Source: an uncultured euryarchaeote (GTDB lineage Archaea; Thermoplasmatota; Poseidoniia; Poseidoniales; Poseidoniaceae). Taken from it: a stretch of DNA of 64,000 bases. Each line of letters opens with the position of its first letter. Within the stretch, counting starts at the first letter, position 1. This document shows, piece after piece, positions 1 through 25,958 of this stretch. A program made the position numbers and the translations under genes. Under the pieces are notes generated by a model. It searched no databases, had not been told where the DNA came from, and saw only the letters and a program-made list of their open reading frames with translations. The stretch is taken from the NCBI GenBank assembly GCA_937899865.1, contig CALBRH010000060.1, positions 1 through 64,000 of the forward strand, given 5' to 3'.

Positions 1-529
1 AATCTGAATAAATCCAACGTAATTGTGCAACACTGAGGCCGCCAATTGATTGTATACAACGATCAGCATCGCCTCCACGGGCAACAATGAGAGTTACCCC
101 GTCCATGGCAATTGGCATTTGAGTGAGCACGATATCACTCGGTTTGCAAGAAAAATACCTGGTGCCAGATTCGAGAGTTGCCTCAATTGGTTTGAATGTT
201 CGACTCATTGAACCAATATCGACATGGTCATTAGAAGTTGAACATACTGCAGAAGCCCCTACTCCCGAGCCGCCGCTAGCAACTGAGACTTGGATAGAAC
301 CGATTTCTTCCCTAAAGCCTTCTGCCCATCCAGTTGCTAGCGGATAAACTGTTGAAGACCCGGCAATCCTTATGTTGCCACTAGATTGTTCAATTTGAGT
401 ACTTCCATCAGTTACTGAATAATCTCCGTTAGAGTCTTGCTTGCCTTCATCGTTGGAAATACACCCTGATAGCATGGTAAAAACAAGTAGTGCCATTATA
501 GTGAAGCAGCGAAAATAATACTTCTCCAT
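1..529 (-). CDS. pstS: Phosphate-binding protein PstS (second paralog), lipoprotein; 3' end runs off the window
   Basis: Manual translation from ATG 529: MEKYYFRCFTIMALLVFTMLSGC (lipobox) ... IRIAGSSTVYPLATGWAE ... VASGGSGVG ... VDIGSMSR. Not in the ORF track because there is no stop inside the window. Confidence 0.85.
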   Translation of the reverse strand, partial: MEKYYFRCFTIMALLVFTMLSGCISNDEGKQDSNGDYSVTDGSTQIEQSSGNIRIAGSSTVYPLATGWAEGFREEIGSIQVSVASGGSGVGASAVCSTSNDHVDIGSMSRTFKPIEATLESGTRYFSCKPSDIVLTQMPIAMDGVTLIVARGGDADRCIQSIGGLSVAQLRWIYSD

Positions 530-680
530 AGTTAAGGTATAATGGACATGTAGATTCATGCCCCGCCTATAGAATATTTATCGCTATATAGTGCTAAGTA
601 TCAAAATATAGTTTCCATGCATGTTGATAGTATAACTGTGACCGTTAGTCATGGATACCTAAAATATAGGAGTGACTAAA

Positions 681-2159
681 ATGAAAATAAACGAAAGAGA
701 AAAATTTGAAAAAGCGGTAAGTCCAGTAATTGCAACCATTTTGATGGTTGCTATAACGGTAGTACTTTCTGGCGTACTTTACGTATGGGCTGCAAACCTA
801 GCAGAAACAAACACAGATGGTGAGTTGAATCTATACAACTTCAGTGTAAGGGATGCCCCTGGTAGCCCTTCAAGCGGCGCAACTGACGATTTAGTAATCG
901 TAACTATGGATATTGGTGAGGAGATCGGTTGGGCTACATTAACTGTTAAACTGTCTATTGACGGTGCGGCATCAAGTACCTGTGCAAATCCTGGTTCAAC
1001 CACCGGGGTTTGTATATTAACCGAAACCAGTGCAAATGATGGTGGTTGGCAAGTTGGAGAATCTGTCACAATATCAGAAAATTCAGTTGATCTTTGTAAC
1101 AGCGCAACCTGTGAGATTACCGTTACCATTCTTGATAGTAGAGAAGGAACAACTCTAGACACCTCAACCACAACCTCTGAAGGTGACTCAGCTGCTAGCA
1201 GCGGTGGCTCTACAAACGGTGGCAACACTGGTGGCAACACTGGCGGCTCTACTGGAGCACCTGCTTGTACTGCAAATGAGGTTTCAGTAACTGAAGCCCA
1301 TGCTGACGGCGATAGCGCTATTGATCCATCCACAGGCGTTTTCTTTGATGACGATTACATCGAATTATACAATAGTGGTGCAACATGCTCCATGGATGGA
1401 GTTTTGATGTACGATTCTTCTGGAATGGAGAATGATGGTACTACTTTTGCAATAGATCTTGCTAGCGGATACACTTTGTTCCAGAAGAATGACAACGCAG
1501 TAAAAGATGGTACTGACGGATTATTTGGTTTCGGGCTAGGTAAGGGCGGAGATTCTGTCAGCCTTGATTTTGATGCTGATGGCACTCCTGAGCAGACATT
1601 TGTTCTACCATCATACTCCGACAACGGTGCTGCTGAACTCTGTAATGGAGTAATTCAACCGACTGGCCCAGGTGCAGAAACCCCAGGTGCGGCTAACAAC
1701 TGTCATGCAACTGTCGCAATTACCGAGATTGCTAACAAAGGAAGTTCTGGAATTTGTTTGTTCAACGATGATGGTTCAATGGACGGTACCGCAGACTGGG
1801 TGGAAATCTGGAATTATGGTGCAACAGATGTTGATCTAAGTGGATTTATTCTTCATGATGACAAAGGTGCGGGTGATTCAAAGGCATTTGGCCTATCAGG
1901 AACTATTGCTGCAGGCGACTATATGTTGTTGTGTAATGACGACTCTGCACAAGGTGCGCTACAATTTGCCTTTGGAATAGGTGGCGATGATACTGTAACC
2001 TTGACTGATGGAACCAATGAAATCTGGACTTCTGGAGCTCTCCCTGAGGCTGATTGTGAAGCAGATGCTGCATGTAATCCTGATGATGTCTATGCTATGG
2101 ATGGTAAAGGCGCTTGGTCTTATGTACCTGGTGCAGAGACCCCTGGTGCAGAGAACTGA
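681..2159 (+). CDS. Archaeal type IV pilin-like N-terminus fused to two lamin-tail-like domains
   Basis: Class III signal peptide EKA/VSPVIATILMVAITVVLSGVLYVW; two LTD-like motifs (VSVTEAHADG..DYIELYN and VAITEIANKG..DWVEIWNYGATDVDLSGFILHD); GGNT linker repeat. ATG 681 follows GGAGTGA; the ORF track starts at GTG 672. Confidence 0.7.
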   Translation: MKINEREKFEKAVSPVIATILMVAITVVLSGVLYVWAANLAETNTDGELNLYNFSVRDAPGSPSSGATDDLVIVTMDIGEEIGWATLTVKLSIDGAASSTCANPGSTTGVCILTETSANDGGWQVGESVTISENSVDLCNSATCEITVTILDSREGTTLDTSTTTSEGDSAASSGGSTNGGNTGGNTGGSTGAPACTANEVSVTEAHADGDSAIDPSTGVFFDDDYIELYNSGATCSMDGVLMYDSSGMENDGTTFAIDLASGYTLFQKNDNAVKDGTDGLFGFGLGKGGDSVSLDFDADGTPEQTFVLPSYSDNGAAELCNGVIQPTGPGAETPGAANNCHATVAITEIANKGSSGICLFNDDGSMDGTADWVEIWNYGATDVDLSGFILHDDKGAGDSKAFGLSGTIAAGDYMLLCNDDSAQGALQFAFGIGGDDTVTLTDGTNEIWTSGALPEADCEADAACNPDDVYAMDGKGAWSYVPGAETPGAEN

Positions 2160-2201
2160 TACAAAATAAATCATATTTTGTCCCCAAAACTTGAGATTAT
2201 G

Positions 2202-2223
2202 CTCGGGGGTTTCGGCCCCCGAG
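2202..2223. terminator. GC-rich hairpin between convergent genes
   Basis: CTCGGGGGT-TTCG-GCCCCCGAG: 9-bp stem with a UUCG loop when read on the + strand. Confidence 0.55.
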
Positions 2224-2256
2224 TATACTCATTTTACCTATTATTGCTAAACAATG

Positions 2257-3339
2257 TTAAGAAGCAATGTTAGTGACTCTCGAATCGAGGAAATTCTGAA
2301 TAGCATTGTATGCCCCTTCAACCCCATTATCGAAGATTATTGTTGGTGATTCAATGTTAGCCGATAATAGTGCAGCGTCTAAATCATCTACAGTGATTTT
2401 GCGCTTATTCAGCATTGCAACATTGGCATAGGCTTTGCTCGCTAGTACTGCATTAATCTCCTGCTCAACTTGCCCAGGTTCTGGAATGCACAAAGATGGA
2501 AGTCCTAACACACCAACTTCGCCGAGTAGTTGACTTCCCGCGGTTTGATAAATTAAATCACAACTAAGTAAATCATCAATAAAACCCTGATTGGAAATTG
2601 GGCAAGAAATGACATCTTCTGGTATTTCTTCTGGTTTGTGACCGTATAATTTTACTTTCAAACCGCGTTTTCTGGCATGATCGACTATTGCATCAAAATG
2701 ACAAAGTACGCTTTTTCTCATGTAAGCAACAGCATGGGTGCCTTGTGGCTGCCATGCGCCAGGGAAAAACTGCGGCCTAAGCATAGGTCCAACAAGATGC
2801 ACATCATCTTTTTTTGGCTCTAAATTAAAGCCCTTTGAAATAACGCTCAAAGCAGGCCTTGGGGTGAAGATTTTGCACAATAACCTTACTGGAAAAAGTC
2901 GTGCTCGTTGGCTTATTGACAACCTATCAGCAAGTTTTGTGTCAAGTGAGAAACGTTGGCTGTTGAAGGAAATTATTGGTTTATCGAGCTTTTTTGCTGC
3001 TCTGGCAAATGTCGGTTCAAAATCTGAGATTAAAGCATCGGGCTGATAATGTTGTAATTGCTTTATACAATCCTTGACTCTATTACGATGGCCTTTGATG
3101 AATTTAGCAGTGGCATAGGCAGTGCCAAAGTAAGATATTCCTCGTTTTCCCAGTACAAATCTTGGGGTTTCTAGATAAGTCACTGATTCAGCTCCGTAAC
3201 GTTTCTCTAACAAATCTACAGCATCGCCACAAGTAAAGAATTGAATCTTGTGACCGGCTTCAATCAGCCGGTCTGCTAAGCCGATAGCACGGGTAGTATG
3301 TCCCCTGCCTTCACCTGCTAGAGCATAGGCGATATTCAT
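2257..3339 (-). CDS. Glycosyltransferase, MJ1255-like (GT-B fold, related to GT28)
   Basis: N-terminal YALAGEGRGHTTRA; PDALISDFEP; C-terminal TAGSQLLGE..PEPGQVEQEINA; ATGA overlap with the upstream phosphoesterase. Confidence 0.8.
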   Translation of the reverse strand: MNIAYALAGEGRGHTTRAIGLADRLIEAGHKIQFFTCGDAVDLLEKRYGAESVTYLETPRFVLGKRGISYFGTAYATAKFIKGHRNRVKDCIKQLQHYQPDALISDFEPTFARAAKKLDKPIISFNSQRFSLDTKLADRLSISQRARLFPVRLLCKIFTPRPALSVISKGFNLEPKKDDVHLVGPMLRPQFFPGAWQPQGTHAVAYMRKSVLCHFDAIVDHARKRGLKVKLYGHKPEEIPEDVISCPISNQGFIDDLLSCDLIYQTAGSQLLGEVGVLGLPSLCIPEPGQVEQEINAVLASKAYANVAMLNKRKITVDDLDAALLSANIESPTIIFDNGVEGAYNAIQNFLDSRVTNIAS

Positions 3340-4184
3340 ACAATCACCTCTGCAGCACGCTCCATTTTTGCCTCTAATTCGTCGAATTCAAGACTAAATT
3401 CTGCTTCGAAAGATTGCTGGTTGCTGGCACTTTGTTTCGCTCTTTCTCTCAGTAGTGAAATTGTTGATATCTTAGGCGAATACTCCAAGATTTCCATGGT
3501 TCCATCCATCGCTTCTGCAATTGCAGTACAAGATTCTAGCCAATCTCCATCATTCCAATATTCCACGCCGTTTTTTACTTGGAATTCTGCTTTGTGAATA
3601 TGCCCACATACAACTCCATCATAACCGAGTCTAGCAGCTTCTCGTGTTACAGTGTTAACGTAATTTTTGAATGTCTTGGAGTTTCTTTGCATCGCCCTTC
3701 TGGCAGCGGTTGCTAATGACCAATTGGGTAATTTCAGCAATCTCCTTATCCAAGCAATGGGACGATTTATTTTCATTAATAGCTGAACGCTAAAATGGCC
3801 TAAGTGGCATAGCCAGCGATGATTTTTGATAAATAAGTCAAATTCGTCGCCGTGTATTACCCAAAGATTTCGGCCATCTGCGGTAGTATGTTCAGCCTGT
3901 TTTATTATTTCTATACCGTGAATTTTTGTTGAGCACCAATCGCGAAATGCCTCATCATGATTGCCGGGTATGTAGTAAATCTTCGTGCCTTTATTGGCTT
4001 TTGAAATTAGATTTTGAATTATTAGATCTTCAGTTTCTGTCCAATGCCACTTCTTGCCTTTGCACCAGTGGTCAACAATGTCGCCAACAAGATAGATTTT
4101 CTCTGCGTCATTTGATTGTAAAAAGGCCAACAACTTATTGCTTTGAACGCCTTTAAGTCCAAGATGGCAATCTGAAATGAACAA
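3336..4184 (-). CDS. plcP: Metallophosphoesterase of the PlcP/LpxH2 (UDP-2,3-diacylglucosamine hydrolase-like) family
   Basis: Motifs ISDCHLG, LVGDIVD, IPGNHDE, IHGDEFD, CGHIH, NDGDWLESCTA. The conserved HYRTLFISD extends upstream of the called TTG, so the true start may be CTG 4214. Confidence 0.8.
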   Translation of the reverse strand: MFISDCHLGLKGVQSNKLLAFLQSNDAEKIYLVGDIVDHWCKGKKWHWTETEDLIIQNLISKANKGTKIYYIPGNHDEAFRDWCSTKIHGIEIIKQAEHTTADGRNLWVIHGDEFDLFIKNHRWLCHLGHFSVQLLMKINRPIAWIRRLLKLPNWSLATAARRAMQRNSKTFKNYVNTVTREAARLGYDGVVCGHIHKAEFQVKNGVEYWNDGDWLESCTAIAEAMDGTMEILEYSPKISTISLLRERAKQSASNQQSFEAEFSLEFDELEAKMERAAEVIV

Positions 4185-4296
4185 TGTTCGATAGTGTGTG
4201 ACCTCTTGTAACAGAAATAGCGCCCCGATTGGGCTAGTCGAGGAGAATACTATATCTCACCCCATAGAAAGTAAATCGTAGTATATAAGATATATA

Positions 4297-5412
4297 TCAA
4301 CCAAATCTTCCTGAAATATACCTCGCAGTCAATTCTTTTGAGGGGTCACCAAAGATTTTCGAGGTCTTGTCAAACTCAACTAGTCTACCTAGGTACATGA
4401 AACCGGTATAGTCACTCACACGTTGAGCTTGACTCATAGAATGAGTAACAATTACCACTGTGAAATGTTTTTTCAGTTCTAAAATTAATTCTTCAATTTT
4501 TGCGGTAGCAATAGGATCTAATGCTGAACAAGGTTCGTCCATAAGAATCACTTCAGGTTCAACTGCAATTGTTCTAGCAATACAAAGTCGTTGTTGTTGT
4601 CCGCCAGATAGACTGGTTCCCAACTCGTGAAGTCGGTCGTTTACTTCGTCCCAAATTGCCGCCCGTCGCAACGACTCTTCGACTATTTTATCCAACTCCC
4701 TCCTACTTGGAGTGTAGTGAAGTCTAACGCCGTATGCGACGTTATCGTAAATTGATTTAGGGAATGGGTTTGGCTTTTGAAATACCATACCAACTCTTCG
4801 TCGGATAGTAACCAAATCTGCACCGCGCCCCATTATTTCCTCGCCGTCGAGTTCGATTGAACCATCCACTTTACAAATAGGGATTAGATCATTCATTCGG
4901 TTTAAACAACGCAATAAAGTAGACTTACCGCAACCTGAAGGACCGATTAAAGCTGTCACTGAGTTACGTTTGAATGGGATGGATACATTGTAAATCGCTT
5001 GGGCGTTACCATAGTGTAAATCCAAGTCCCGAATCCACATATGAGCATCGCCATCGATTTCTAAATCTCTGGTTGAATCTGGTATTTCTTCATGGATATC
5101 TGAATCATTGCTAATTTCATCCGGTAATGATGCTAAATATTCTTTGATGATTGTAGATTCCTCAAGATCTGCTTTGCCATCAACCTTAGACATTGAAGTT
5201 AAGATACCTCTGATTTGAGATTTTTTGGGCTGTTCCGAATCGCTAGAAAGCAGTTGTTTTAGTTGATCGAATAGTTGTTCCTCCTCGTCAGAAATTTCCC
5301 CGTCGGCCGCCATCAGCTCTTGCAGTGTCTCAAGTAAAGACTCGTGGGTATCACTAACCTCAGTCTCTTCAACGACTTCTTCATCTTCTGTTTTTTCTTG
5401 TTTTTTCGTCAT
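4297..5412 (-). CDS. pstB: Phosphate ABC transporter ATPase PstB with a ~120-aa acidic TerB-like N-terminal extension
   Basis: Walker [65 protein letters not shown]-terminus. Confidence 0.95.
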
Positions 5413-8400
5413 GTGCTTGAATACCTCCTAAAGTGTGCACGGAGTAAAATTGCTGCTGAGTTAACAATAACTAAAGTACCTAACAACACGATTGAAGCAC
5501 CAGCAGCTGCGACCTTAAAGCCTATTTTTGGCATATCTGTCCAGCGATATACTTGAACTGGTAATACGGTGTAAAATCCTCTATCATTAGAGTCTGGCCC
5601 GACATATTCTGCCGGATCTGCAGACATTGGGCCTCGGTCAGCCCATAATGGAATGTTTTGCAAGTGAGGCTCAATACCAGGGAACCAACTAGCAAATCCA
5701 TCTAACGATGGAGTATACTGATATGATACGTAAAAGAATGCGTCTGGTTCAGTAAATACTGAAGCAACTGCACCAACTAGGATAAGAGGCGCTGCCTCTC
5801 CCATAATTCGTGACATGGCTAAAATGGTCCCAGTCATCATACCAGGCATTGCGTGTGGCAATACGTGGTCTTTAGTCACCTGCCATTTGGTACAGCCTAA
5901 ACCAAATGCTGCATTTCGTAACGATGGTGGAACTGCCCTGAGTGCCTCTTGTGAAGAGATTACAATCGTAGGCATTGCCATCGTTGCCATTGTCATACCA
6001 GCGGTCATCACGGTTCCTCCTAACCCTAGACCAATTCCTCTATCAGTCAAAAAGAGGGCTAATCCAAATAACCCGAATACAATCGCTGGAACTCCAGCAA
6101 GGTTAGTAATGAGAGCTTGAATTCCTCTTCTGAACGAATTATTTGGCGCATACTCTTCTAGCCAAATTGCTGCGCCAATTGAAAGAGGAATAGCAAACAA
6201 CATCGTGTATCCAACAACATAGACGCTACCCCAAAATGCCGCCCTTAAACCCGCTTTATACGGTTCTGAGGACGTGTAGTCTGACCATACAAATGGAATG
6301 TGAATATTCATTGGAATGGTAAACAATGCTATCACCATGACCACTAGTGCTGCGGTCATCCATCCGTCTCGCCCCTTGATTACTAATCCTAATCGATCTT
6401 CCTGAATCTTGTTGGTTCTAGTCAATTGTAGTGCTGCAATTACCAACTTTTTAGCCCCGACAAATGACATCAATAATAGAACCGCCCCTACAACCCATCC
6501 TTCGATTAAAATCCATGAAAGGGCAATATACCAGACGATTACGTTCAACACCAACACCCCGAAATCTACCAGCCCGTCTGCTAAAGGAACATTTTCATCA
6601 GGACGCATCTTAATAATATCTGAAATTGCAGTGATTAGGGCGATGAAGCTCATCAAGGATACCGCACCACCAATTGTGAATGAGAACGGGACCAATAATA
6701 CTGGTTGGTTTTCATTAAATGTACTAATGAAAATTAACAATGCTCCGATGAAGATAAGTAACCTAATTAGAACACCAAATAATCTGCTTAATACTTCTGA
6801 AGAAAATGATAACCACGACCATGGTGTTTTCGTTCCAGTATCGAGTTCCTTTGAGCCTATTTTAATGAGTCCTGAACGTAGGGATAGCAGAACTCTATTT
6901 GGATATCTGACGACAAAAAACATCCCGATCAATCCCAGGTAAGCAAACATCGGCAGATAAGGGTCTCGTTCTTCATACATATCCAAGCCACTCTCAAGTC
7001 GATTTGAGGCTCCGCAATATTGCAGCCATGATAACTGGTCAAGATATCTGATTGTATCACACCATTCTTCGGAGTCCATTATTTGATTTGATACTAAAGT
7101 AGTGGCTTTATCGCAGTCAAAGTCTGCATATTGAGGGTCATTTTGTTTGTATGATTCTGAACATTTTATAGAATATAGGTCTGAAGTAATTTGCCAAACC
7201 ACAGGTATTGAAGAAATATTGGTTTTAGAATAATTAAACAATTTTCCTGCAGAAATCCCTTGCCCTTGAACCAAGTTAGCAATACCGTCTCCGTCTATGT
7301 CTCTGTCTTTTACTTCATCATGAACTCCATCGCCATCTGCATCGTTTACTGATATCCATTCACCTATTGACATTGGTTGGCCGCCGAACTCATATCGGCC
7401 AACCTCTGGACAATATTTTGGATGGCCGATTATTGGATTTTCGTCATTATCGCCATCAATATCAAGATCACAAACATCGATTGTTCCATCATTATCCAAA
7501 TCATCATCATCAATAAATCGGAATTGGAACCAATCTGCGGGAGAGCCGAGAGCAAAATCGCCGATCTCTCTGTATGAGGTTTCTAGAGCGTCATTAGCAG
7601 GACCTGATGTTTGAGAATAGGTAACAGTGTAATTCATTGTATGGTTGATATATAGCCAGTTTGTAGTTACCCCTCCTGACGGTTTTAGGGTTATATGTGA
7701 GTCTCTCTCAAAGTAATTCCATTCGCCTAAAAAGCCATTTGATAATGAAGGGGCAGCAATTCGGCTAGATGTGCTGAAATATGGGCCTGTTGGGTCATCC
7801 ACTAGGTTGACATACACTACATCGTGGCCTGTATTAGAAATAGTTACTCGGAATTCAGTTGACCGGGTTTTGGTAAAAATTGATGGTTGGATTTCATAGC
7901 CATCATCGTTTTTGAATTCTCCTACTACTGCCTCACCAGTCAAACCTGCCGATAGGATGTATGCTGATGTTTCAGCCTTAGTACAGAATTCTGGGGTAAA
8001 CGTTCCAATGAATTCTTGGGGCCGTAATATCTGTTCTGGAATTTGTTCCACATTTAGTGGGCGCCATTCTCTATCTGTTTGATTGTAAATCGAAGCAACT
8101 GTTATTTCTGAAAATTCGCCTATTCCAATTGCGCTTCTGTTGAGCCAAATATCCCCATCGCCGCGGAAAATTGGCGTTACTGGTGTATAATGTAGCCATA
8201 ATTTACCATCTTTGAAAGCGTGCGGGTAATCATCTGAAAAGTCTAGTACGCTGTTCAAGAATTCGTCGCCCTCTGCGGAATCCCAGCGTAGGCCTTTCCA
8301 TACCCATTGGCTTCCATCATCTGAATCGACCCAATAATCTCCCATCCCAGGAGTAGGTGCTTCTGGCCGCTTGAAGATGTTGATTCGCTCTTCTTCTCCG

Positions 8401-9101
8401 GTGCTGTATTCCTTAGTATCTTGACTAATTCCGGGCAATATATCCAGAACCTTCCATGGCTCAACAGGTTTGTAAGTATACTCTGCTAAGTCCTCATTAC
8501 AAAGCGCCCGCTCTAAGTCAGTGTCTAGATCCCATACAGATTGCCCATCTATGCTGGTGAATATATCTGTATCATTTTCTATACCAGTGAAAGCACCGTT
8601 AGAGAGTATTGGACTTGGGTTGTAATTGTCTCGAGTTGCAACATAGTGAGTCTCTTCCCATTTTGCCTCTATAGTGATATTCGACCGATCAATGCGCAAG
8701 TCTGCATCAAAGTATTCAACTGTTGCATCGCTAGGTACTGACAAACCAGACGGTATTTGGTCGGTTCTGTACTCTACTGTATTACCAGAACTATCTGACC
8801 ATCTTGTTATGCTGTATGCTTCCCAAGAAGGATTCCAACTTTCCGCTTTCCAAGAGAGTTGTGTTTGGGCAACTGGTTTACTGCCTTCTCTTATCCCATC
8901 AACTTCAATTTCTTGTTCAGGAACAAATGCCTCCTCTGTGATTTGTGTCAATAGAGTAACAAGAGCTAAACCGCAAACTAAAGCAATTGAAATAAACACG
9001 GATTTGCCAATTTTAGCGGTTGCATAACGGCGCTTTAGGGAGCGTTGTGGAAGCAGGGATGTGCCAAAAAGGCCATTGTAATCGCTCGGTCGTTCTTTCA
9101 A
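5409..9101 (-). CDS. pstA: Phosphate ABC transporter permease PstA, giant (1230 aa) with a large ectodomain and extra TM helices
   Basis: C-terminal core [58 protein letters not shown]; ATGA overlaps with pstC and pstB. Confidence 0.9.
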
Positions 9102-11557
9102 TCGTATTCCTCCCTAAAACGAGTCATTATCTTGTGTCCGACCATGTTTAATGATAATGTAATGACGAATAGGTATAATCCTACTGCGAATAATGAATAA
9201 TATGGTGTCGTACCAATCGGTAATTCGCCCCCGATTCGTTGAGCAATATATGCAGTCATTGTTTGAGCAGACCTAAACATGTTATCTGAGTAAACAGCTA
9301 ATGTCCCCACAGACAATGTCACGGCCATCGTCTCACCTATTGCTCTTGATAAAGCGAGAATAATTGATGCCAATATACCAGAGAGAGCTGATGGAATTGT
9401 TACCCTTGCCGTTGTTTCGGTGGGTGTTGCACCTAGAGCATAAGACGCCTGTCTCAAATTGTCTGGCACCGCTCTCAAAGCATCTTCAGATAATGAAGCA
9501 ATCAGGGGAGTAATCATTATTCCCACTACAATTGCTCCGTTTAGAGGATTGAATAGTTGGGGTTCTTGCGAAATCCACCCACGTTCAAGAAATGATGTGC
9601 CTATGTCAACCACTATTGGAGCGATGACTACGAAAGCAAAAAACCCGTAAACTACTGAGGGGATGCCTGCTAATAGTTCAAGGATCGGTTTGACAATGTT
9701 TGCAACTCTAGGGCTGGCATATTCTGACAAAAATATGGCTGTCCCAAGTCCTACGGGAATGGCTATAACCAATGCGCCTAATGCAACTTGCAAAGTTGTT
9801 TGCAGCAATGAATTTACCCCCATATGGAGGTTGGAATCTACAGTTACTAGGCCAACTGTTGTTATGTCTGTCTTCCACCATGTTTGCGTGAAAAATTCTC
9901 CTAGTGAACCATTGACTCGAGCAACTACATCCAAATACATCAACAGAATAGTTACTATCACTGCAATATTCATTGCTAGTCTACTATCTGAGTCAACGAT
10001 TGCAAACTTGTTACTACCGGATTGATTCCTAGAGTCATTGATTACTTTGGTAAACATTAACACTGCTACGCAAAGCGCAATGGTATGCCCTATTTGAATG
10101 AAATAAAAGTTTGTGAATGAGATGATAAGTGAGAATATCCCTAGAGTTAAAGTGGAATAGGGTAACTTTCCATCTAATTTCCAGCCAAAAAATGTCAATA
10201 TGAAGCTTAATGCAGAGACTAAAAGAATGATTGACAAACTAGGTGGAACTAACATAGACATGGTACTTATAGTTGCCAAAAATGCAAAATTTGTTCTTAA
10301 TACTGGCACTATCAAGTCTATTCGTTCAACTGGGATATTAACTAACCAGCGAGGAGAAAAAATTGTTAGTCCTACGACAAGGATGGTGATTACTCCTAAC
10401 AACAGACCAAAGTAATCTCTATCGGGAGTGTATGGGTTTGGATCGTAAGCATTGGGCAATCCATCACTGTCGATATCTTCGTCAATATTATTTGTTATAC
10501 CATCGCCATCGATATCATTATCCAGAAGTTTACCTGCTCCGTCAACTTGCTCATTTGCTACACCATCATTATCGTAATCAAACGGCAAATCCTTGATGTC
10601 CAGCTCCCTCAAATTATCCAGTAAGTCTTGATGTGAATTATTACCGCCTGTTGTGAAATCGGAGGTAAAAATGTACGAAGTCACCTCGTTTGAAAAATTA
10701 TATGATGCTGAACTAAAACGTGAAATTGATTCTCCTTGATAATCAAAAAATGAATACTGTTCAATGGTGAAACATCCGTTACTAGATTTCTCCACACCGC
10801 GGGTAACAAATTCATCCTCGAGTTGTTGGAGTATTGGTTGCCCTTCGTTATGGCATAACGTTACTTGATTGATATTTATTTCATCGTTCTTGTTGTATTC
10901 GGTGTTATTTTCATAATAAGGCAGCAGCACTTGATAATCTTCCATACTAAGTCTCGCACTATCATCACCAACCCAAACCGTCACCCACCATTCACGGGCA
11001 AGTTCAGGGTCTTGTTTGTGTAATATCAGAGCATTTTCATTATCTGCTATGTATTGTAATGGTATTTTTGGATACTCGTCATCCCAATGTTCCGGGTTTT
11101 GATCAAAGTATTCTGATAAATATGAACGATCTGAATCTAATCTTGGTCCAACGATTATTGTCCCATCAGCAAGTTGAAAAGCACTGCCTTCTCTATCGCT
11201 ATCGTCTGTATAGGTTTCGCTACTAGGGTCCCAACCGTAGGTATCTATCATTGGGTCTGATAGAACGACCATGTGTTCCATATCCCAATCAACTATACAA
11301 AAAGAATCAAGCCACAAAGGATCAGATATTTTCCCATCATCATATATCGCAGCATCTTTGATACTTGCTTTCAAATCTTCATCCCAATCCTGAGGCGGGG
11401 TGAACGAATCGGCACCGCAAGCAAACCCTCGATAGAATTTCGAACCGGATTCAAATAATACGAATACAATACCGGCAGTGATCATTACCACGGTAGCAGC
11501 AAGGGCAAATAGGACAATTCCTGGAGCGCTTTCTTCTATCCTGCCTCGCCAACGCAT
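9098..11557 (-). CDS. pstC: Phosphate ABC transporter permease PstC, enlarged (819 aa) with an ectodomain and extra TM helices
   Basis: Core IAIPVGLGTAIFLSEYA..ILELLAGIPSVVYGFFA..SEDALRAVP..SRAIGETMAV..SLFAVGLYLF. Confidence 0.92.
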   Translation of the reverse strand: MRWRGRIEESAPGIVLFALAATVVMITAGIVFVLFESGSKFYRGFACGADSFTPPQDWDEDLKASIKDAAIYDDGKISDPLWLDSFCIVDWDMEHMVVLSDPMIDTYGWDPSSETYTDDSDREGSAFQLADGTIIVGPRLDSDRSYLSEYFDQNPEHWDDEYPKIPLQYIADNENALILHKQDPELAREWWVTVWVGDDSARLSMEDYQVLLPYYENNTEYNKNDEININQVTLCHNEGQPILQQLEDEFVTRGVEKSSNGCFTIEQYSFFDYQGESISRFSSASYNFSNEVTSYIFTSDFTTGGNNSHQDLLDNLRELDIKDLPFDYDNDGVANEQVDGAGKLLDNDIDGDGITNNIDEDIDSDGLPNAYDPNPYTPDRDYFGLLLGVITILVVGLTIFSPRWLVNIPVERIDLIVPVLRTNFAFLATISTMSMLVPPSLSIILLVSALSFILTFFGWKLDGKLPYSTLTLGIFSLIISFTNFYFIQIGHTIALCVAVLMFTKVINDSRNQSGSNKFAIVDSDSRLAMNIAVIVTILLMYLDVVARVNGSLGEFFTQTWWKTDITTVGLVTVDSNLHMGVNSLLQTTLQVALGALVIAIPVGLGTAIFLSEYASPRVANIVKPILELLAGIPSVVYGFFAFVVIAPIVVDIGTSFLERGWISQEPQLFNPLNGAIVVGIMITPLIASLSEDALRAVPDNLRQASYALGATPTETTARVTIPSALSGILASIILALSRAIGETMAVTLSVGTLAVYSDNMFRSAQTMTAYIAQRIGGELPIGTTPYYSLFAVGLYLFVITLSLNMVGHKIMTRFREEYD

Positions 11558-11630
11558 GATTCATCCTCCAACATCCTGCGTTGTGTTGTGATGTCGTAAT
11601 GCTATCGGACTCTTTTATGTTCCTAAATAA

Positions 11631-11650
11631 ACTATATATTGCTATATAGT
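11631..11650. promoter_or_regulatory. Palindrome ACTATATA-TTGC-TATATAGT upstream of pstC (candidate operator or internal promoter)
   Basis: Perfect 8-4-8 inverted repeat in the pstS-pstC spacer; the same CTATAT/ATATAG core occurs in the other island spacers. Confidence 0.4.
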
Positions 11651-11656
11651 TGGGCC

Positions 11657-11687
11657 AAGTGGGAGGGGATTGCTCCCCTCCACACTT
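11657..11687 (-). terminator. Hairpin downstream of pstS (partial terminator or mRNA stabiliser)
   Basis: 8-bp GGAGGGGA/TCCCCTCC stem plus an AAGTG/CACTT extension; the loop reads GCAA (GNRA) on the - strand; ~30 nt after the pstS stop. Confidence 0.55.
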
Positions 11688-11715
11688 AGTTCGGAGGGTT
11701 TATGTTAGATATCAC

Positions 11716-14700
11716 TCAGCTAAAGTCGCCTTCAGCGGAAATTCTGCGCCACATCTCTTGCCATGTTGCGTCATCTAGTGGAACGTATCCTACTTCAGAA
11801 ATCTCAGCGGTTCCGTCTCCTGAGTAAGCCCAGGTTAGGAAAGCCGAAACTTCGTCCCAAACATCGTTGTTGACATTCATGAATAGTGGCCTAGATAGTG
11901 GTGCATATGATCCGTCTCTTACTGTGCCTGCATCTGGTATTACTGCAGTTTCGGTGGTGTCGCCCATACCATATACATGGTCGTTAGCAACGCCTGCGGC
12001 CGATAGAGTTGCTTGGTTTTCCGCATAGTATGCGAAGCCAAAGTAACCGATAGCAGTATCATCACCGTTTAGAGTGTTTACCAGTACATTGTCGTCAGAA
12101 GATTGAGTTCCTGCTCTGAATCCTTGGGATGCTTCGTCAAGTATTGACTCAAAGAAGTATTCGTAGGTGCCAGACGCTGCGTCTGGATAAGCAAGAACAA
12201 TTTCTGCGTCTGGACAGTTTGCGTTTAGCTCAGACCACTTATGGGTGCTGTCATCGTTGTCTCCGTTTGGTGTTACCGATGACATGTCAAGGCCTGCTGT
12301 AGTCAATTCTGCTGCAGTTTCAGCAGAGAAGATCCAGCGCAGTTGCGCAACTGTAAGTCCACCCATTTGTTGAATACACATATCAGCTGCGCCGCCTTTC
12401 TTGGTAACCACGGACAAACCGTCAACAGCAACTACAAGTTGGGTTACAGTGATTGAAGTGTCACCAACTGCGCACTCAACTTGTCCGTTTGCGTCAACGC
12501 CATCTTGTGTCTCTGTGGCCTTCCAGTCCCTAGACATGTCTCCAATGTCTACTTGGGAGCCCTTTGCTGAGTTAGCACAAACTCTACCTGCACCTGAGGA
12601 TGACCCACCGGATTCTACAGTGATTGTTGTATCGCCACAAATTTCGGTGTACGCTTCAGCCCAGGCTTCTGCAAGTGGTAGAACCGTTGAGGAACCTGCG
12701 ATTGAGATGCTTTGTGCGCCGCTACAGAATGCGTCGTCAAAGATATCTGAATTGCCGCCTGCGGTCATTCCCTTCAAGTATGCATATCTGCTGAGGAACA
12801 TCTGAGCTTCTTGGTTGTCGTTTAGGCTAACATATCCTACTTCTCCAACCTTGTCTTGGCCCATTTCAGTGAACAGTCCATACGCCATGAATGGTAGCGT
12901 GTTTTCAAGTGAAGCTGCATCGATTAGCAGATTCATAAACAGAGGTCTGGATAATGGGTTGTAAGAGCCGTCTCTAACTGTTGTTGCATCAGGAGCAACC
13001 ATGTTACCTGCATCATTTTGAACTGGAGCAGCAGTTAGTGTTGCTAGGTTCTCTTGGTAGTAAGCGTAGCCAAAGTAACCGATTGCGGTCTCGTCACCAA
13101 TTAGCGCATTAACTAGAACGTTGTCGTCACTGGATTGTTGGCCGGATCTGAATCCTTGTTCTGCTTCGTGTAGAATTGCTTCAAAGAAGTATTCGTAGGT
13201 ACCGGATGCTGCATCTGGGTATGCCAGATTAATTTCGGCATCTGGACAGTTTGCGGATAGTTCAGACCACTTGTGGGTGCTGTCATCGCCGTCTGCATTC
13301 GGAGTTACAGTTGACATGTCTAAACCTGCTGCAACCAATTCTGCTGCAGTTTCTGCGGAGAACATCCAGCGTAGTTGGTCAGGAGTTAGACCGCCCATTC
13401 CGTTTACACAGGTTTCAGCAGCGCCGCCCTTCTTCATTACAACGGATAGCCCATCAATTGCAACTTGGAATTGGGCAACATCTCTGCTGCTGTCACCAAC
13501 TAAACAGTCAAGAACGAAACCGTTTGCTTGTCGGTTTGCTTCGGTTGCCTTCCAGTCTCTGGACATGTCGCCGATGTCTACTGGTGTACCCTTGGCAGAG
13601 TTTGCACAAACTCTGCCTGCACCGGAGGATGAACCGCCGGATTCTACTGTAATTGTAACATCGCTACACTCTTCGGTGTATTGTTCTGCCCATGCCTCAG
13701 CAAGTGGTAGAACAGTGGAGGAACCTGCGATGCTGATTGAGCCTGCTGGACCGCAGATTACTGGTTGTGTTCCTGCTAGTCTTGCTTCCATAGTTGCCTG
13801 AATATCGGCTGGAATCGGGACATATCCTACTGAATTAACTAGTAGGTCGCCACCGTCTCCAAGACCAAACTTGAGGAATGGTACTGTGTTTGCAAGCGAT
13901 GCATCTTCAACAAGTAGGTTCATGAACAGAGGTCTTGATAGTGGGTTGTAGGTTCCATCGGCAACTGTTGAGCCACTTGGAGCAACCATGTTACCTGCAT
14001 CGTTCTTTACTGCAGCTGCAGTCAGAGTTGCTAGGTTCTCTTGGTAGTAAGCATAGCCGAAGTATCCGATAGCGGTCTCATCACCAATTAGCGCATTAAC
14101 TAGAACGTTGTCGTCACTGGATTGTTGTCCGGATCTGAATCCTTGCTCTGCTTCGTGTAGAATTGCTTCAAAGAAATACTCGTAAGTACCTGATGCTGCA
14201 TCTGGATATGCTAGATTAATTGCTGCGGATGGGCAATCGGAGGAGAGTTCACTCCATAGATGGGTTGAGTCATCATTATCACCGTTAGGAGTAACTGTAG
14301 ACATATCAAGGCCGGCAGCAGTTAGTTCGGCTGCAGTTTCTGCGGAGAACATCCAGCGTAGTTGGTCAGGGGTTAGACCGCCCATTCCGTTTACACAGGT
14401 TTCAGCAGCGCCACCTTTCTTCATAACGACTGAAAGGCCATCAAACGCAACTACGATTTGTCTTGCACTTCTTGAAGTGTCTCCAACTAGACAATCCATA
14501 GTGTAACCATCTTCGTCAATGGTTCTCTCGGTGTCTTTCCAATCCCTGGACATGTCACCAATGTCTACTGGTGTACCCTTAGCAGAGTTTGCACAAACTC
14601 TGCCTGCACCGGAGGATGATCCTCCAGATTCGACTGTGATGGTAACTCCCTCACAAGCCTCTGTGTAATATTCTGCCCATGCTTCTGCAAGAGGTAGAAC

Positions 14701-14940
14701 GGTAGATGACCCAGCGATGCTAATTGAGCCATCTGGGCCACAGACTACTGTTCCGACGTCAATTGTGTCGTCGGGTACAGTTTCATTTACAGTAGAATTA
14801 GTGCCGTCCCCTGGGGTAGTGACGGTGTCTGTGTTGTCGTCTTTATCATCGTCATCATTTCCTAGACATCCAGCCATGGCTGAGACCATCATAAGTAAGA
14901 TCAGTGTTATTGCTTTCATTTTGGTGCTTTGAGTTATCAT
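11716..14940 (-). CDS. pstS: Phosphate-binding lipoprotein with three tandem PstS domains
   Basis: Lipobox AMAGCLG; three copies of SISIAGSSTVLPLAEAWAE..VESGGSSSGAG..DIGDMSRDWK..YPDAASGTYEYF..IGYFG..YNPLSRPLFM..VGYV. Confidence 0.93.
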   Translation of the reverse strand: MITQSTKMKAITLILLMMVSAMAGCLGNDDDDKDDNTDTVTTPGDGTNSTVNETVPDDTIDVGTVVCGPDGSISIAGSSTVLPLAEAWAEYYTEACEGVTITVESGGSSSGAGRVCANSAKGTPVDIGDMSRDWKDTERTIDEDGYTMDCLVGDTSRSARQIVVAFDGLSVVMKKGGAAETCVNGMGGLTPDQLRWMFSAETAAELTAAGLDMSTVTPNGDNDDSTHLWSELSSDCPSAAINLAYPDAASGTYEYFFEAILHEAEQGFRSGQQSSDDNVLVNALIGDETAIGYFGYAYYQENLATLTAAAVKNDAGNMVAPSGSTVADGTYNPLSRPLFMNLLVEDASLANTVPFLKFGLGDGGDLLVNSVGYVPIPADIQATMEARLAGTQPVICGPAGSISIAGSSTVLPLAEAWAEQYTEECSDVTITVESGGSSSGAGRVCANSAKGTPVDIGDMSRDWKATEANRQANGFVLDCLVGDSSRDVAQFQVAIDGLSVVMKKGGAAETCVNGMGGLTPDQLRWMFSAETAAELVAAGLDMSTVTPNADGDDSTHKWSELSANCPDAEINLAYPDAASGTYEYFFEAILHEAEQGFRSGQQSSDDNVLVNALIGDETAIGYFGYAYYQENLATLTAAPVQNDAGNMVAPDATTVRDGSYNPLSRPLFMNLLIDAASLENTLPFMAYGLFTEMGQDKVGEVGYVSLNDNQEAQMFLSRYAYLKGMTAGGNSDIFDDAFCSGAQSISIAGSSTVLPLAEAWAEAYTEICGDTTITVESGGSSSGAGRVCANSAKGSQVDIGDMSRDWKATETQDGVDANGQVECAVGDTSITVTQLVVAVDGLSVVTKKGGAADMCIQQMGGLTVAQLRWIFSAETAAELTTAGLDMSSVTPNGDNDDSTHKWSELNANCPDAEIVLAYPDAASGTYEYFFESILDEASQGFRAGTQSSDDNVLVNTLNGDDTAIGYFGFAYYAENQATLSAAGVANDHVYGMGDTTETAVIPDAGTVRDGSYAPLSRPLFMNVNNDVWDEVSAFLTWAYSGDGTAEISEVGYVPLDDATWQEMWRRISAEGDFS

Positions 14941-15020
14941 AGTATACTCTCTCCAAACCGTGGGAGGTAACCATAGTATTGTGTAATGTGTCCGGAAACT
15001 ATTTACTTCAATATATTAAT

Positions 15021-15034
15021 ATATAGGTCTATAT
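15021..15034. promoter_or_regulatory. Inverted repeat ATATAG-GT-CTATAT between divergent pstS and AbrB-phoU
   Basis: Read directly in the sequence; preceded by ATATATTAATATAT. Confidence 0.4.
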
Positions 15035-15086
15035 ATAATTAGTGTGGCATGGGTATCTATCCGGAGTTATACGGAGGTGCGTTAAC

Positions 15087-16124
15087 ATGGAGATTTTAGG
15101 CAATATCGAATATCGAAAATTACAGGTTACCGGCGGTTCTACCTTCATTGTTAGCCTACCAAAGAAGTGGATAAAAAGTAACAATCTATCGTCTGGAGAT
15201 GTAGTGGGCGTTGAATGTTTAGCAAGCGGAGAGGTGCAAATAACCCCGCACGAAGTAAAACAAATCAGACGTAGTGTGTCTATTGACTTAAGCAAGTATC
15301 CAAAGAGTGCCCTTTATGATTACCTAATCGGAGCATATGTAAGCGGAGCTGATGTTATTAATGTCTCAATGAAAGAAGGAATCCCTATTCAACAAAAAAG
15401 AATCGTTAGGAGATTTTTAAGAGATACTAGGGGAATGGAAATCTCAGAGGATGAAGATAAAAAAATTTCAATCATTTCGTTACTGAATCCGAATGAATTG
15501 CCACTACAAACTAGTTTGAATCGGATGTATTTACTTGTAACAAGCCTAGTCGAAGATACACTAGGTGTGCTTTCGGGGGATGATCGAGACACTATTTCTG
15601 ATTATGAAGATAGGGAGCGACAAATTGATGCTAGACGCTTACTTATCGACCGGCAAGTTGCTATGGCTTTGCATTCGCCACAAATCGAAAGAGGTTTAGG
15701 TATTGATAGATACCAAGCGATGGAGCATGCAGTCATGGCTCATTACTTAGAAAGGATGGGTGACCACGCTCAAACCTTTGCTAGTTTAGTTGCTGATGAG
15801 CAAAACAACATTGAGTTTGAGGAAAATCAAATGCCAATGGCAGCGATACCGATATGGTTATCTTCATTAAGAGCAATTATTAGAAACACATACTCAAAAG
15901 ATATTTCTGTGTTAATCAAAGCAAAACAAGACCTGGCGAAAGCAACTATTGATTTAGAACAACATGAGAACGACTTAATGTCCTCGCGAGCACGAGCAAC
16001 TAGCGTTCTTTCTGAATTCAGGATTTCTGAAATCGTTAGGAGGTTATGTGGTTATAGTATAGACCTTACAGAGACTCTAATCAATATGCTTATTGCGGGA
16101 AAGACTGAGGCCTCTGATAAGTAG
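15087..16124 (+). CDS. Archaeal phosphate uptake regulator: AbrB-type N-terminal domain plus PhoU domains
   Basis: YRKLQVTGGSTFIVSLPKKW (AbrB/SpoVT-like); AHYLERMGDHA (PhoU repeat); ATG 15087 follows GGAGGTG. Confidence 0.85.
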   Translation: MEILGNIEYRKLQVTGGSTFIVSLPKKWIKSNNLSSGDVVGVECLASGEVQITPHEVKQIRRSVSIDLSKYPKSALYDYLIGAYVSGADVINVSMKEGIPIQQKRIVRRFLRDTRGMEISEDEDKKISIISLLNPNELPLQTSLNRMYLLVTSLVEDTLGVLSGDDRDTISDYEDRERQIDARRLLIDRQVAMALHSPQIERGLGIDRYQAMEHAVMAHYLERMGDHAQTFASLVADEQNNIEFEENQMPMAAIPIWLSSLRAIIRNTYSKDISVLIKAKQDLAKATIDLEQHENDLMSSRARATSVLSEFRISEIVRRLCGYSIDLTETLINMLIAGKTEASDK

Positions 16125-16126
16125 GT

Positions 16127-16810
16127 GTGAATATGGTGCCACCGATAAGAACAAACTTAGATAACCGAATGAATACGTTAAGATCAGCAATTTCTGAATT
16201 TTTTGATTCAATAATTTCATCATATAATCTAGCAATCAACGGAATAAAAATTTTCAATGAAGGAGACTTAAAAGAAATTTACAAGTTGAGAAAAAATGCG
16301 CAAAAACAAGCGGAATATCTCTCTCAAGATTTATTGTTAGTCCTAACCCTTAACCAGCCCCTGTTGCAAGATTTGAGAATCATTGCTTCATACCTTAGAG
16401 GAGTCGACGTAATTGAAAGGCTTGCCCGTCATGCAAGAGATATCGCGGATGCTCAGGCTCTATGGCACGATATTGAAGATACTGATACGCCTCTGCTATC
16501 CGAATTATCCTCACTTGGGCATGAGACGGTCGCTTTGATTGAAATAATGCGTGGTTGTTTAGTAGACCAAGAAGGGGTACCTGAAGAATTATTAAAAGAA
16601 AAGTGGATAACTATTTCCGAGTTATTTGGTAAAATATCAACTGAAATTCTTGAGGTTCAAGGTCAATCTATTGGCGGCCGCGAAGGTCGAATTTTGCTAA
16701 ACACTATGGCGAAAAGATTTGAACGCTCATCATATAACTTGATGAGGCTTGCAGATTTATGGCATTATGCGCTTGAAAACGAATGGATACATTTAGAATC
16801 GGTAGCATAA
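16127..16810 (+). CDS. phoU: PhoU family protein
   Basis: LTLNQPLLQDLRIIASYLRGVDVIERLARHARDIA and KRFERSSYNLMRLAD. Confidence 0.8.
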   Translation: MNMVPPIRTNLDNRMNTLRSAISEFFDSIISSYNLAINGIKIFNEGDLKEIYKLRKNAQKQAEYLSQDLLLVLTLNQPLLQDLRIIASYLRGVDVIERLARHARDIADAQALWHDIEDTDTPLLSELSSLGHETVALIEIMRGCLVDQEGVPEELLKEKWITISELFGKISTEILEVQGQSIGGREGRILLNTMAKRFERSSYNLMRLADLWHYALENEWIHLESVA

Positions 16811-17400
16811 CACAACTGCGAGGGATTAATCTGGGTTATGGCGTAGAAATTGAACGTAGATTTCTTGTCGATGGTAGAGGTTTAAAGCCGTGGCGAAATG
16901 TGCCAAATCTGTCTAACATAAAGCAGTTTTATTTGGATCTCGATTTGTTCGAAATAGGGGAATTCCAACTTTCCTACGATTCAACTCCAATAGTACCAAT
17001 AAGCGAGGCAGAAGAGAATTTAATCAGTAAGGATAATTTCTCGAGTGGAAGATTAAGATTTATTGACGACAAGATTATTTTGAGTATCAAAGGAAGAAGA
17101 AATTACGACACTGCAATGGAGTTTGAATGGGAATTATCAGAAGTCCCTAGAGGCATTGATCTAGATAATTACCCCTTCGTCGAGAAAACCCGATACTTTT
17201 GGCCCAGCGAAGATGGTTTTACATGGGAGATTGATGAGTTTGAAGGAGAGTTGGCTGGCTTAATTTTAGCAGAGGTCGAATTAAGTAATTCCACACAGGT
17301 TGTTGAAATTCCAGAATGGATTGGTTCTGAGATTACCGGTTTGCCAGGATGGTCTAATTCCGCTTTAGCGAAGACTATTAAATCGTTTAAACAGGACTAA
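16783..17400 (+). CDS. CYTH-domain protein (triphosphate tunnel metalloenzyme); start uncertain
   Basis: EIERRFLV, LSIKG, EFEW, EKTRY, WEIDEFEGELAGLILAEVEL, PEWIGSEITG..SNSALA. Confidence 0.85.
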   Translation: MDTFRIGSITQLRGINLGYGVEIERRFLVDGRGLKPWRNVPNLSNIKQFYLDLDLFEIGEFQLSYDSTPIVPISEAEENLISKDNFSSGRLRFIDDKIILSIKGRRNYDTAMEFEWELSEVPRGIDLDNYPFVEKTRYFWPSEDGFTWEIDEFEGELAGLILAEVELSNSTQVVEIPEWIGSEITGLPGWSNSALAKTIKSFKQD

Positions 17401-21657: not shown

Positions 21658-21744
21658 GCAGAAGTCGCCCAGCTTGGTCAAAGGCGCTGGGATGAGGTCC
21701 CAGTCCGTAACGGTTCGCAGGTTCGAATCCTGCCTTCTGCACCA
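21658..21744 (+). tRNA. tRNA-Leu(GAG), CCA encoded
   Basis: Acceptor GCAGAAG/CTTCTGC+ACCA; anticodon arm CTGGG-ATGAGGT-CCCAG; long variable arm; T-loop GGTTCGAATCC. Confidence 0.95.
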
Positions 21745-25841: not shown

Positions 25842-25958
25842 GTTTTTTAACCCCCCCGTTATAAACGGTTAACTGTTTTATAAATTGGAGGCTCTATATA
25901 GGTTTAGAGAAAAATCGACTGTTTTAAAGAAAAATAGCAAATTTTCCGCGAAGCGAAT

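Follow-up and report, generated by a model that had tools for sequence, protein, structure and literature searches.

A probable genomic island for phosphate scarcity, with a giant Pst transporter, in a Marine Group II archaeon (Poseidoniaceae)

Among the described systems closest to the locus reported here is the bacterial Pho regulon, with its pstSCAB-phoU genes, its PhoBR pair and its Pho box (CTGTCAT-N4-CTGTCAT); archaeal phosphate sensing without PhoBR is poorly understood. Few groups of archaea are as abundant in the surface ocean as Marine Group II (MGII), and we have analysed a stretch of 64,000 nucleotides from an MGII member of the Poseidoniaceae (assembly GCA_937899865.1, contig CALBRH010000060.1, positions 1 to 64,000; hereafter the window), whose left end encodes a Pst phosphate transporter, PhoU-family proteins and a metallophosphoesterase-glycosyltransferase pair. 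Two further systems resemble parts of this locus. The first is the PlcP-Agt lipid renovation of Sinorhizobium, Phaeobacter, SAR11 and Pseudomonas (PMC4796936, PMC8528852); the literature searched held no paper covering both PlcP and Marine Group II. The second is the family of archaeal SpoVT/AbrB-PhoU proteins, such as TK2245 of Thermococcus kodakarensis, which is listed as chromosome-associated (PMC7325993); here the literature searched held no functional study. For MGII itself, Tully 2019 (PMC6336850) listed the phosphate-binding ABC subunit (PstS) as present only in some subclades, and thus patchy Pst is not in itself new, but that study makes no mention of island structure, an empty site, two operon types, a PlcP-like/glycosyltransferase pair, a phytase-like partner, the promoter motif or the loss of PiT.

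We propose, at a probability of roughly 0.6, that the left end of the window belongs to a flexible genomic island that packages a toolkit for phosphate scarcity. The function is suggested by the gene content, by the co-occurrence of the genes among relatives, by a promoter element that they share and by the exchange of PiT, another phosphate transporter, for Pst. The source genome (G000) comprises 2.01 Mb in 65 contigs and is 91% complete, and the window opens at base 1 of one of these contigs (C60). Gene content was read from a listing of open reading frames (ORFs) together with Pfam and NCBIfam scans (Table 1), and distribution was read from a survey of 121 genomes, sampled evenly across the order Poseidoniales, all of them metagenome-assembled genomes (MAGs) that are 83-97% complete.

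Table 1. Features at the left end of the window, in window coordinates, with the matches and motifs that mark them (LTD, lamin-tail domain)
Feature	Position	Strand	Matches and remarks
pstS2, 5' part (N-terminal 186 aa, single-domain PstS)	2-559	-	PBP_like_2, TIGR02136; cut by contig start, remainder on C53
pstS2/pilin-LTD divergent promoter spacer	560-671		4 hexamer copies; palindrome GCTATATAGT at 583-592
Archaeal type IV pilin N-terminus fused to LTD	672-2159	+	Pilin_N, LTD, arch_flag_Nterm
GC-rich hairpin, terminator-like in both directions, motif-free	2198-2227		In convergent spacer 2160-2256
GT-B glycosyltransferase, MJ1255 / Glyco_trans_1_3 kind	2257-3339	-	PF13528 126 bits
PlcP-like (LpxH-related) metallophosphoesterase	3336-4184	-	Metallophos match
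pstB-plcP spacer	4185-4296		ATATAG (minus strand) 4250-4255, 66-71 nt upstream of PlcP-like start
PstB ATPase with acidic N-terminal extension of ~120 aa	4297-5412	-	TIGR00972 389 bits, residues 125-371
Giant PstA, 1230 aa	5409-9101	-	TIGR00974 204 bits, core residues 928-1225
Giant PstC, 819 aa	9098-11557	-	TIGR02138 247 bits, core residues 532-814
pstS-pstC spacer	11558-11715	-	Hairpin 11655-11689; CTATATAG/ATATAG 11632-11649; ~80 nt to pstC start
Membrane-anchored PstS, 1074 aa, three tandem binding domains	11716-14940	-	Three PBP_like_2; TIGR02136 458 bits; one N-terminal hydrophobic segment
Divergent pstS / abrB-phoU promoter region	14941-15086		ATATAG-N2-CTATAT at 15021-15034
AbrB/SpoVT-PhoU fusion	15042-16124	+	MazE_antitoxin (AbrB-type) and PhoU domains; probable start ATG 15087
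PhoU-family protein, 227 aa	16127-16810	+	Pfam PhoU 28.2 bits, cut-off 23.5
CYTH/TTM-like protein, 205 aa	16783-17400	+	Profile match to NeuTTM 2fbl, E 1.6e-13

An earlier note on this DNA, made from its letters, had taken the first 17,400 positions for an accessory phosphate-starvation island, and the survey across Poseidoniales genomes agrees with the accessory part of that claim: the genes are not universal core among relatives. A match to PstA is present in 33 of the 121 genomes (17 of the 56 of high quality), a phytase-like gene in 14 and the PlcP-like gene in 11. Moreover, the site is found empty in two congeners, G003 (on a single contig) and G012, in which the CYTH-like gene lies <1 kb from a beta-propeller gene, with the order HerA-DegT-CYTH-like directly beside beta-propeller/GFO/T2SSE genes and without any island gene. 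The same two flanks are ~27 kb apart in the source genome and in a relative, LRMED-012 (G121; 98% identical, long-read). Because the flanks join in G003 and G012, the block is a true insertion/deletion; its size is ~24-27 kb.

Ahead of window position 1 the island extends by another ~6.4 kb, which lies on contigs C53 and C28 of the same genome. To the left of the corresponding position, LRMED-012 carries genes for a 434-aa single-domain PstS (pstS2), a 313-aa LTD protein and a 1488-aa phytase-like protein, and beyond these a ParB_N-like gene and two thymidylate kinase (Tmk) genes, which travel with the block. The pstS2, LTD and phytase-like genes form one operon, and the same left-hand genes are found in the source genome on C53 and at the end of C28. 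The 1488-aa protein combines choice-of-anchor-I, phytase-like and LTD domains; choice-of-anchor-I domains form MSP130-like propellers of seven blades, in which calcium sites are predicted (PMC11878542). The domains point to a putative surface phosphoesterase. On the right, the island ends with the PhoU stop codon at 16810. The CYTH-like gene that follows had been counted into the island in the earlier note, but it is present in 56 of the 59 genomes of the family, and therefore belongs to a core backbone (CYTH-DegT-HerA) outside it; in island-free genomes it stands beside DegT-HerA.

The centre of the island is a high-affinity Pst transporter of unusual size. All four PstSCAB components pass the curated cut-offs of their models (207 bits for TIGR02136, 196 for TIGR02138, 193 for TIGR00974 and 343 for TIGR00972; scores in Table 1), and the operon has the order pstS-pstC-pstA-pstB, with overlaps of 4 nt at both pstC/pstA and pstA/pstB. 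The two pstS genes and four binding domains of the earlier note are borne out by PBP_like_2 matches, three in PstS and one in pstS2; the latter gene is cut by the contig end, and its complete counterpart at locus L042 encodes 434 aa with a single domain. The enlargement of pstC and pstA is likewise real, since the transporter core makes up only the last 280-300 residues of each protein. Ahead of the core stand one transmembrane helix, an acidic ectodomain and extra transmembrane helices. The ectodomain of PstA comprises ~720 aa (residues 53-773) with four DxDxDG motifs, that of PstC ~350 aa with three. What had been called a fused pstB proved to be half right: PstB does have an acidic N-terminal extension, but similarity to a fused domain is weak, with TerB-like matches in the window protein and two orthologues that are all sub-threshold. 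The transporter differs from bacterial Pst in its three-domain PstS, in PstC and PstA ectodomains of 350 and 720 aa without a Pfam or PDB match, and in the acidic extension of PstB.

Two types of pst operon can be told apart in the order. In the giant type, found in 15 sampled genomes and in both large families, PstS has 2-4 domains, PstC 700-840 aa and PstA 1160-1400 aa; in the medium type, found in 17 sampled genomes, PstS has 1 domain, PstC ~450 aa and PstA ~600 aa. Giant operons of the two large families are 35-77% identical; for the ectodomains, identity between genera and families is 35-59%. A search with the PstA ectodomain among 5.8 billion proteins gave just 17 matching clusters, all of them giant PstA. 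Since the ectodomains are conserved across families and all 17 clusters are giant PstA, the accretions are old and lineage-specific, and the earlier idea that the parts were rebuilt by duplication or domain accretion within this island does not hold.

The extensions of PstA and PstC matched nothing in Pfam (E up to 10) or in the ESM Atlas. Similarly, an AlphaFold2 model of the PstA ectodomain (mean pLDDT 66.5) gave no Foldseek match in the PDB at E ≤ 0.001, and its best VIA-align score (Z 5.0) was confined to a helical stretch; the better-predicted half, refolded alone, gave a worse model (pLDDT 59). Two side observations concern PstS. In LRMED-012 (G121:C6:199482-201406) the triple PstS seems to be split into frames of 514 and 267 aa, either through frameshifts introduced by sequencing or through a genuine break. 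Proteins with tandem PstS domains, of 740-1270 aa and 32-40% identical to the archaeal triple PstS, also occur in the diatoms Epithemia, Seminavis and Nitzschia (P0186, P0195, P0198, P0200).

The type of operon goes together with the rest of the gene set. The phytase-like gene is present in 12 of the 15 giant-Pst genomes and in none of the medium-type genomes, and the PlcP-like/glycosyltransferase pair is present in 8 of the 15. By comparison, PHO4 (PiT) was detected in 98 of the 121 genomes; it went undetected in 11 of the 15 giant-Pst genomes, the source genome among them, versus 12 of the 106 others, all of these being counts from incomplete MAGs. This contrast repeats in several genera and in both families. 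We conclude that the giant Pst usually stands in for the ordinary low-affinity PiT of relatives. The presence of giant Pst and its partner genes, as opposed to PiT, may serve as a testable marker for low-phosphate ecotypes. The names of the carrier MAGs refer to the Mediterranean, the Red Sea, the North Atlantic and also the Black Sea, just a hint at habitat.

Beside the transporter genes stand two genes of the PhoU family. Their Pfam PhoU domains agree with the earlier note, but neither protein reaches the equivalog level (TIGR02135, cut-off 130), with 42 bits for the 227-aa protein and 23 bits for the AbrB fusion, and we therefore call them PhoU-family proteins and not equivalogs. The gene for the AbrB-PhoU fusion lies beside the pst operon, of either type, in almost every locus that extends far enough. 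AbrB-PhoU genes come in two kinds, an orthologue linked to pst and a core paralogue that stands apart; in six Pst-less genomes the paralogue is divergent from a gene for a PiT(PHO4)-PhoU_div fusion transporter of 703-707 aa. The domain composition of the fusion makes it a candidate DNA-binding regulator. It shares its two-domain architecture with TK2245, but unlike proteins of that type it is paired with Pst or PiT across the order and has a conserved candidate site in its own promoter. The absence of PhoBR, to which the earlier note had drawn attention, stands in so far as a search of the 91%-complete genome for a PhoB-type output domain (PF00486) came up empty, but it is not specific to this genome, since the same search was negative in archaeal control genomes.

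The candidate site is the hexamer CTATAT/ATATAG. The earlier note had reported an AT motif in every intergenic spacer of the locus; we find the hexamer in four of the five spacers, the convergent terminator spacer at 2160-2256 having no copy. Genome-wide, the hexamer has a density of 0.33 per kb and occurs in 44 of 654 intergenic gaps (610 are without it). At least two copies are present in just 5 of these gaps, of which 3 are at this locus. The copies at the locus far exceed chance expectation. The form CTATATAG occurs 5 times in 2.01 Mb, and GCTATATAGT only at window positions 583 and 11641. The units at the promoters of pstS, pstCAB, abrB-phoU, pstS2/pilin and plcP are often palindromic or stand 10 bp apart. 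Among relatives the hexamer is found in 28 of 36 target spacers and in 6 of 116 others, in counts that ignore kinship, and in both families the spacer between pstS and abrB-phoU often has two or three units at 10-bp intervals. The pstS-pstC spacer has a fixed layout, in which a strong GC hairpin (z -2.9 to -7.1) is followed directly by the motif, by ~80 nt and by pstC, and this order is kept in nearly all giant-type operons. In several relatives, some of which have plcP away from pst, the motif also precedes plcP by 70-105 nt. As an independent check, the six Pst-less genomes (L069-L074: G003, G012, G054, G052, G064, G037) all carry CTATATAG in the spacer between PiT and AbrB-PhoU genes (6/6). 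The element thus goes with AbrB-PhoU genes and with phosphate transporters, be the transporter Pst or PiT.

The locus is like the Pho regulon in its S-C-A-B gene order, in the PhoU-family genes alongside and in a short repeated promoter element common to uptake, scavenging and lipid genes. It is unlike the Pho regulon in having no PhoB/PhoR, with the AbrB-PhoU fusion as candidate regulator instead, and in the element itself, an AT-rich ATATAG unit with a 10-bp period. An extended motif, ATATAG-N2-4-ATT[GT]A, was tried and set aside; among intergenic sites it singled out the pstC promoter alone. Further CTATATAG sites lie at window positions 25842-25958 and at G000:C54:29642-29655 (L067). The genes downstream of them are a xanthine/uracil permease gene and thyA-DHFR (here the site is inside the 3' end of a PlsC-like gene), both concerned with nucleotide metabolism, and we kept these sites out of the proposed regulon because no recognised phosphate gene adjoins them.

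The phosphoesterase-glycosyltransferase pair directly after pstB is present as the earlier note described it, with matches to Metallophos and PF13528. The glycosyltransferase (GT) gene starts within the PlcP-like gene, overlapping its stop by 4 nt, so that the two are translationally coupled, and they are adjacent in all 11 of the fetched loci and all 20 of the named loci. Genera g1 and g2 have the pair behind pstB, and g4 and others have it behind the phytase-like gene; Tmk/ParB_N genes are usually next to it. All loci retrieved with the GT alignment, LRMED-012 among them, bear Poseidoniales, Poseidoniaceae or Poseidonia MAG names, with one exception. The exception (L058; PAHN01000009.1) is labelled Flavobacteriales bacterium NAT179, and its gene content (phytase-like, LTD, pstS2, PlcP-like, GT, ParB_N, Tmk and a PstB 81% identical to that of the window) is plainly Poseidoniales, so that it looks like a mis-binned Poseidoniales contig.

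In the PlcP-like protein the metal motifs DxH, GD, GNHD, HGD and GHxH are invariant (alignment A3). Its sole relatives in the PDB are solved LpxH chains, but we rejected an identity with LpxH, since the equivalog model gave 52 bits against a cut-off of 134 and the solved chains have GNRD, not GNHD. The closest non-archaeal relatives are from Sphingomonadales, at 45-48% identity; Erythrobacter sp. NAP1 is among the strains that have an agt homologue downstream of plcP (Sebastian et al., PMC4796936), and for comparison the PlcP of Pseudomonas shares 46-47% identity with its counterparts in Phaeobacter and Sinorhizobium (PMC8528852). Similarly, an identity of the GT with Agt (GT4) was rejected: Glyco_transf_4 scored 22 bits against a cut-off of 28.5, and the best match was PF13528. 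The solved chains nearest to the GT are MurG and YjiC, and it is closest to MurG and GT1 UDP-glycosyltransferases. A PlcP tree, with biased bacterial sampling, gave no decision on the monophyly of the archaeal copies. The PlcP-like proteins of L039 (G028:C70, g1) and L038 (G006:C14, g2) are almost identical in this tree, either because the gene passed recently from one genus to the other or because a 4.9-kb contig was wrongly binned.

The comparison with PlcP-Agt systems is close in several respects. In both there is an LpxH-like GNHD metallophosphoesterase with a glycosyltransferase in a two-gene unit; the island pair lies beside phosphate genes, behind a phosphate-type promoter element, and its PlcP-like gene is patchy among relatives. 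It differs in its archaeal host, in its GT1/GT28-like Glyco_trans_1_3 partner in place of a GT4 Agt, and in its substrates, possibly ether lipids on a glycerol-3-phosphate (G3P) backbone. On the lipid side, no match to the G1PDH family was found in the source genome, which does have a GGGPS (PcrB family) gene at window 45195-45683(-) and three PlsC-like acyltransferase genes. Rinke et al. (PMC6461757) reported that G1PDH is absent from 270 MAGs and that G3P dehydrogenase is present in all genera but one, and Poseidoniales lipids are probably built on G3P (PMC6461757, PMC6962369), a picture that the gene set of the source genome fits. If they are, a bacterial-type PlcP-like enzyme would be stereochemically compatible with them. 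We regard the PlcP-like/GT pair as putative lipid phosphate-saving enzymes.

Several points weigh against the proposal of a phosphate-scarcity toolkit, or against parts of it. Because the surveyed genomes are incomplete MAGs, absences are provisional, and the counts across genomes and loci ignore kinship. The PlcP-like label was reached indirectly, via metal motifs and Sphingomonadales homologues. The GT falls outside the Agt/GT4 family that partners bacterial PlcP (PMC8231724), the pair is present in three genomes without a PstA match (G028, G015, G004), and the surroundings of the island are rich in glycan-synthesis genes (DegT, GT2, TupA-like, GFO). MGII are uncultured, and their lipids are not known (PMC6962369). 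As to the element, there is no exact hexamer upstream of plcP in L036, L037, L040 and L041. Finally, the most enriched upstream hexamer of the whole genome is TATATA, at 10.9 times expectation, and the motif may therefore be of TATA-box flavour and not an operator.

Among the alternatives, the one that survives best is that of an ancestral block, which Poseidoniales would have lost repeatedly without any lateral transfer, its patchiness reflecting genome streamlining. The two large families do both have the giant operon, and its identities (42-77%) broadly follow taxonomy. Furthermore, there is no integrase among the ORFs scanned and no tRNA at the island edges, flanking repeats being outside the search; the nearest tRNA is a tRNA-Leu at 21658-21744, 4.8 kb from the edge. 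Nevertheless, we consider this history rather unlikely. Within genus g1 the giant type is found in G000 and G034 only, the medium type in three genomes, and the others have no PstA match. The PlcP-like copies of G028 and G006 are nearly identical across two genera, and the island modules, which stay clustered and are usually beside Tmk/ParB_N, differ in order between genera. The alternative bears on the origin of the block and not on its function, because the block is accessory under either history.

The second alternative concerns the element. The genes would be phosphate-related, but the AT motif would be the TATA box of strong promoters, with no dedicated operator or common regulon, and any regulation would run solely through contacts between PhoU and the transporter. 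The prevalence of TATATA fits this explanation, as do the distances from motif to start codon, which are those expected of a TATA box followed by a leader, and the occurrence of CTATATAG upstream of thyA-DHFR and the xanthine/uracil permease gene. On the other hand, the hexamer is confined to a small minority of intergenic gaps and is rarely repeated within one, and the two or three units that precede pstS at 10-bp intervals are not expected of a single TATA box. In addition, the flanking C and G of the motif are conserved across two families, and it marks the promoters of phosphate transporter and AbrB-PhoU genes even in every one of the six Pst-less genomes. We therefore hold a plain TATA box to be unlikely.

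A role of the pair in cell-envelope glycan synthesis (for example in processing lipid-linked sugar carriers), merely housed in the same variable region, accords with the neighbouring genes for a DegT aminotransferase, GT2, a TupA-like ATP-grasp protein and a GFO/IDH/MocA oxidoreductase, with the lipid-linked sugar substrates of the nearest solved relatives (LpxH for the esterase, MurG for the GT), with a GT that is not an Agt and with the three carriers that have no PstA match, but it seems quite improbable given that the pair lies directly after pstB or beside phytase-like/pstS2 genes in most loci, that in several genera it is preceded by the motif of the pst promoters, that 8 of the 11 genomes with the pair have giant Pst, and that the nearest bacterial relatives of the PlcP-like protein come from Sphingomonadales, an order that includes an Erythrobacter strain among the plcP-agt carriers (PMC4796936).

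Returning to the toolkit for phosphate scarcity, we tentatively suggest how its parts may work together. There may be an archaeal phosphate regulon of AbrB-PhoU proteins and ATATAG-repeat operators, in which low-phosphate lineages have swapped PiT for giant Pst and acquired two enzymes, a PlcP-like one of bacterial origin and a GT, that free their unusual G3P-based membrane lipids of phosphorus. The ATATAG/CTATAT element would be the operator of the AbrB-PhoU regulators, or overlap it, and would then be an archaeal counterpart of the PhoB/Pho-box circuit, with PhoU passing the status of the transporter to the AbrB-PhoU regulator. When phosphate is scarce, PstS would be raised above PstCAB by means of the hairpin and an internal promoter, and organic phosphate would be hydrolysed at the cell surface. 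The PlcP-like enzyme would take phospho-head groups off G3P-based lipids, and the GT would glycosylate its product, yielding a phosphorus-free glycolipid. The locus thus offers a cis-element and a regulator as candidates for the basis of a phosphate regulon in archaea. It also offers two candidate enzymes by which an archaeon could renovate its lipids to spare phosphorus, which would bear on the matter of G3P-based mixed membranes, and transporter ectodomains that have no fold match and are conserved across an order. If the suggestion is correct, MGII lipid head groups and phosphate sensing in archaea would become open to genetic study for the first time.

Three genes of the window stand apart from these subjects. 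The earlier note had listed a pilin-LTD gene, and its Pilin_N and LTD domains are indeed present; among the loci examined, the gene is restricted to the closest relatives, L015, L042, L044 and L043 (51% identity). The 205-aa ORF next to the right edge has no Pfam match, CYTH included, and the earlier CYTH label is upheld at the level of CYTH/TTM-like by profile comparison with solved TTM enzymes, in which 2fbl and 3typ both gave E 1.6e-13 and Saci_0718 gave E 0.012. In its N-terminal strand, ExExK reads EIERR, with Arg replacing Lys. Beyond HerA and the tRNA-Leu gene, window positions 21787-24072(+) encode a large membrane-anchored pentapeptide-repeat protein with 13 Pentapeptide stretches.

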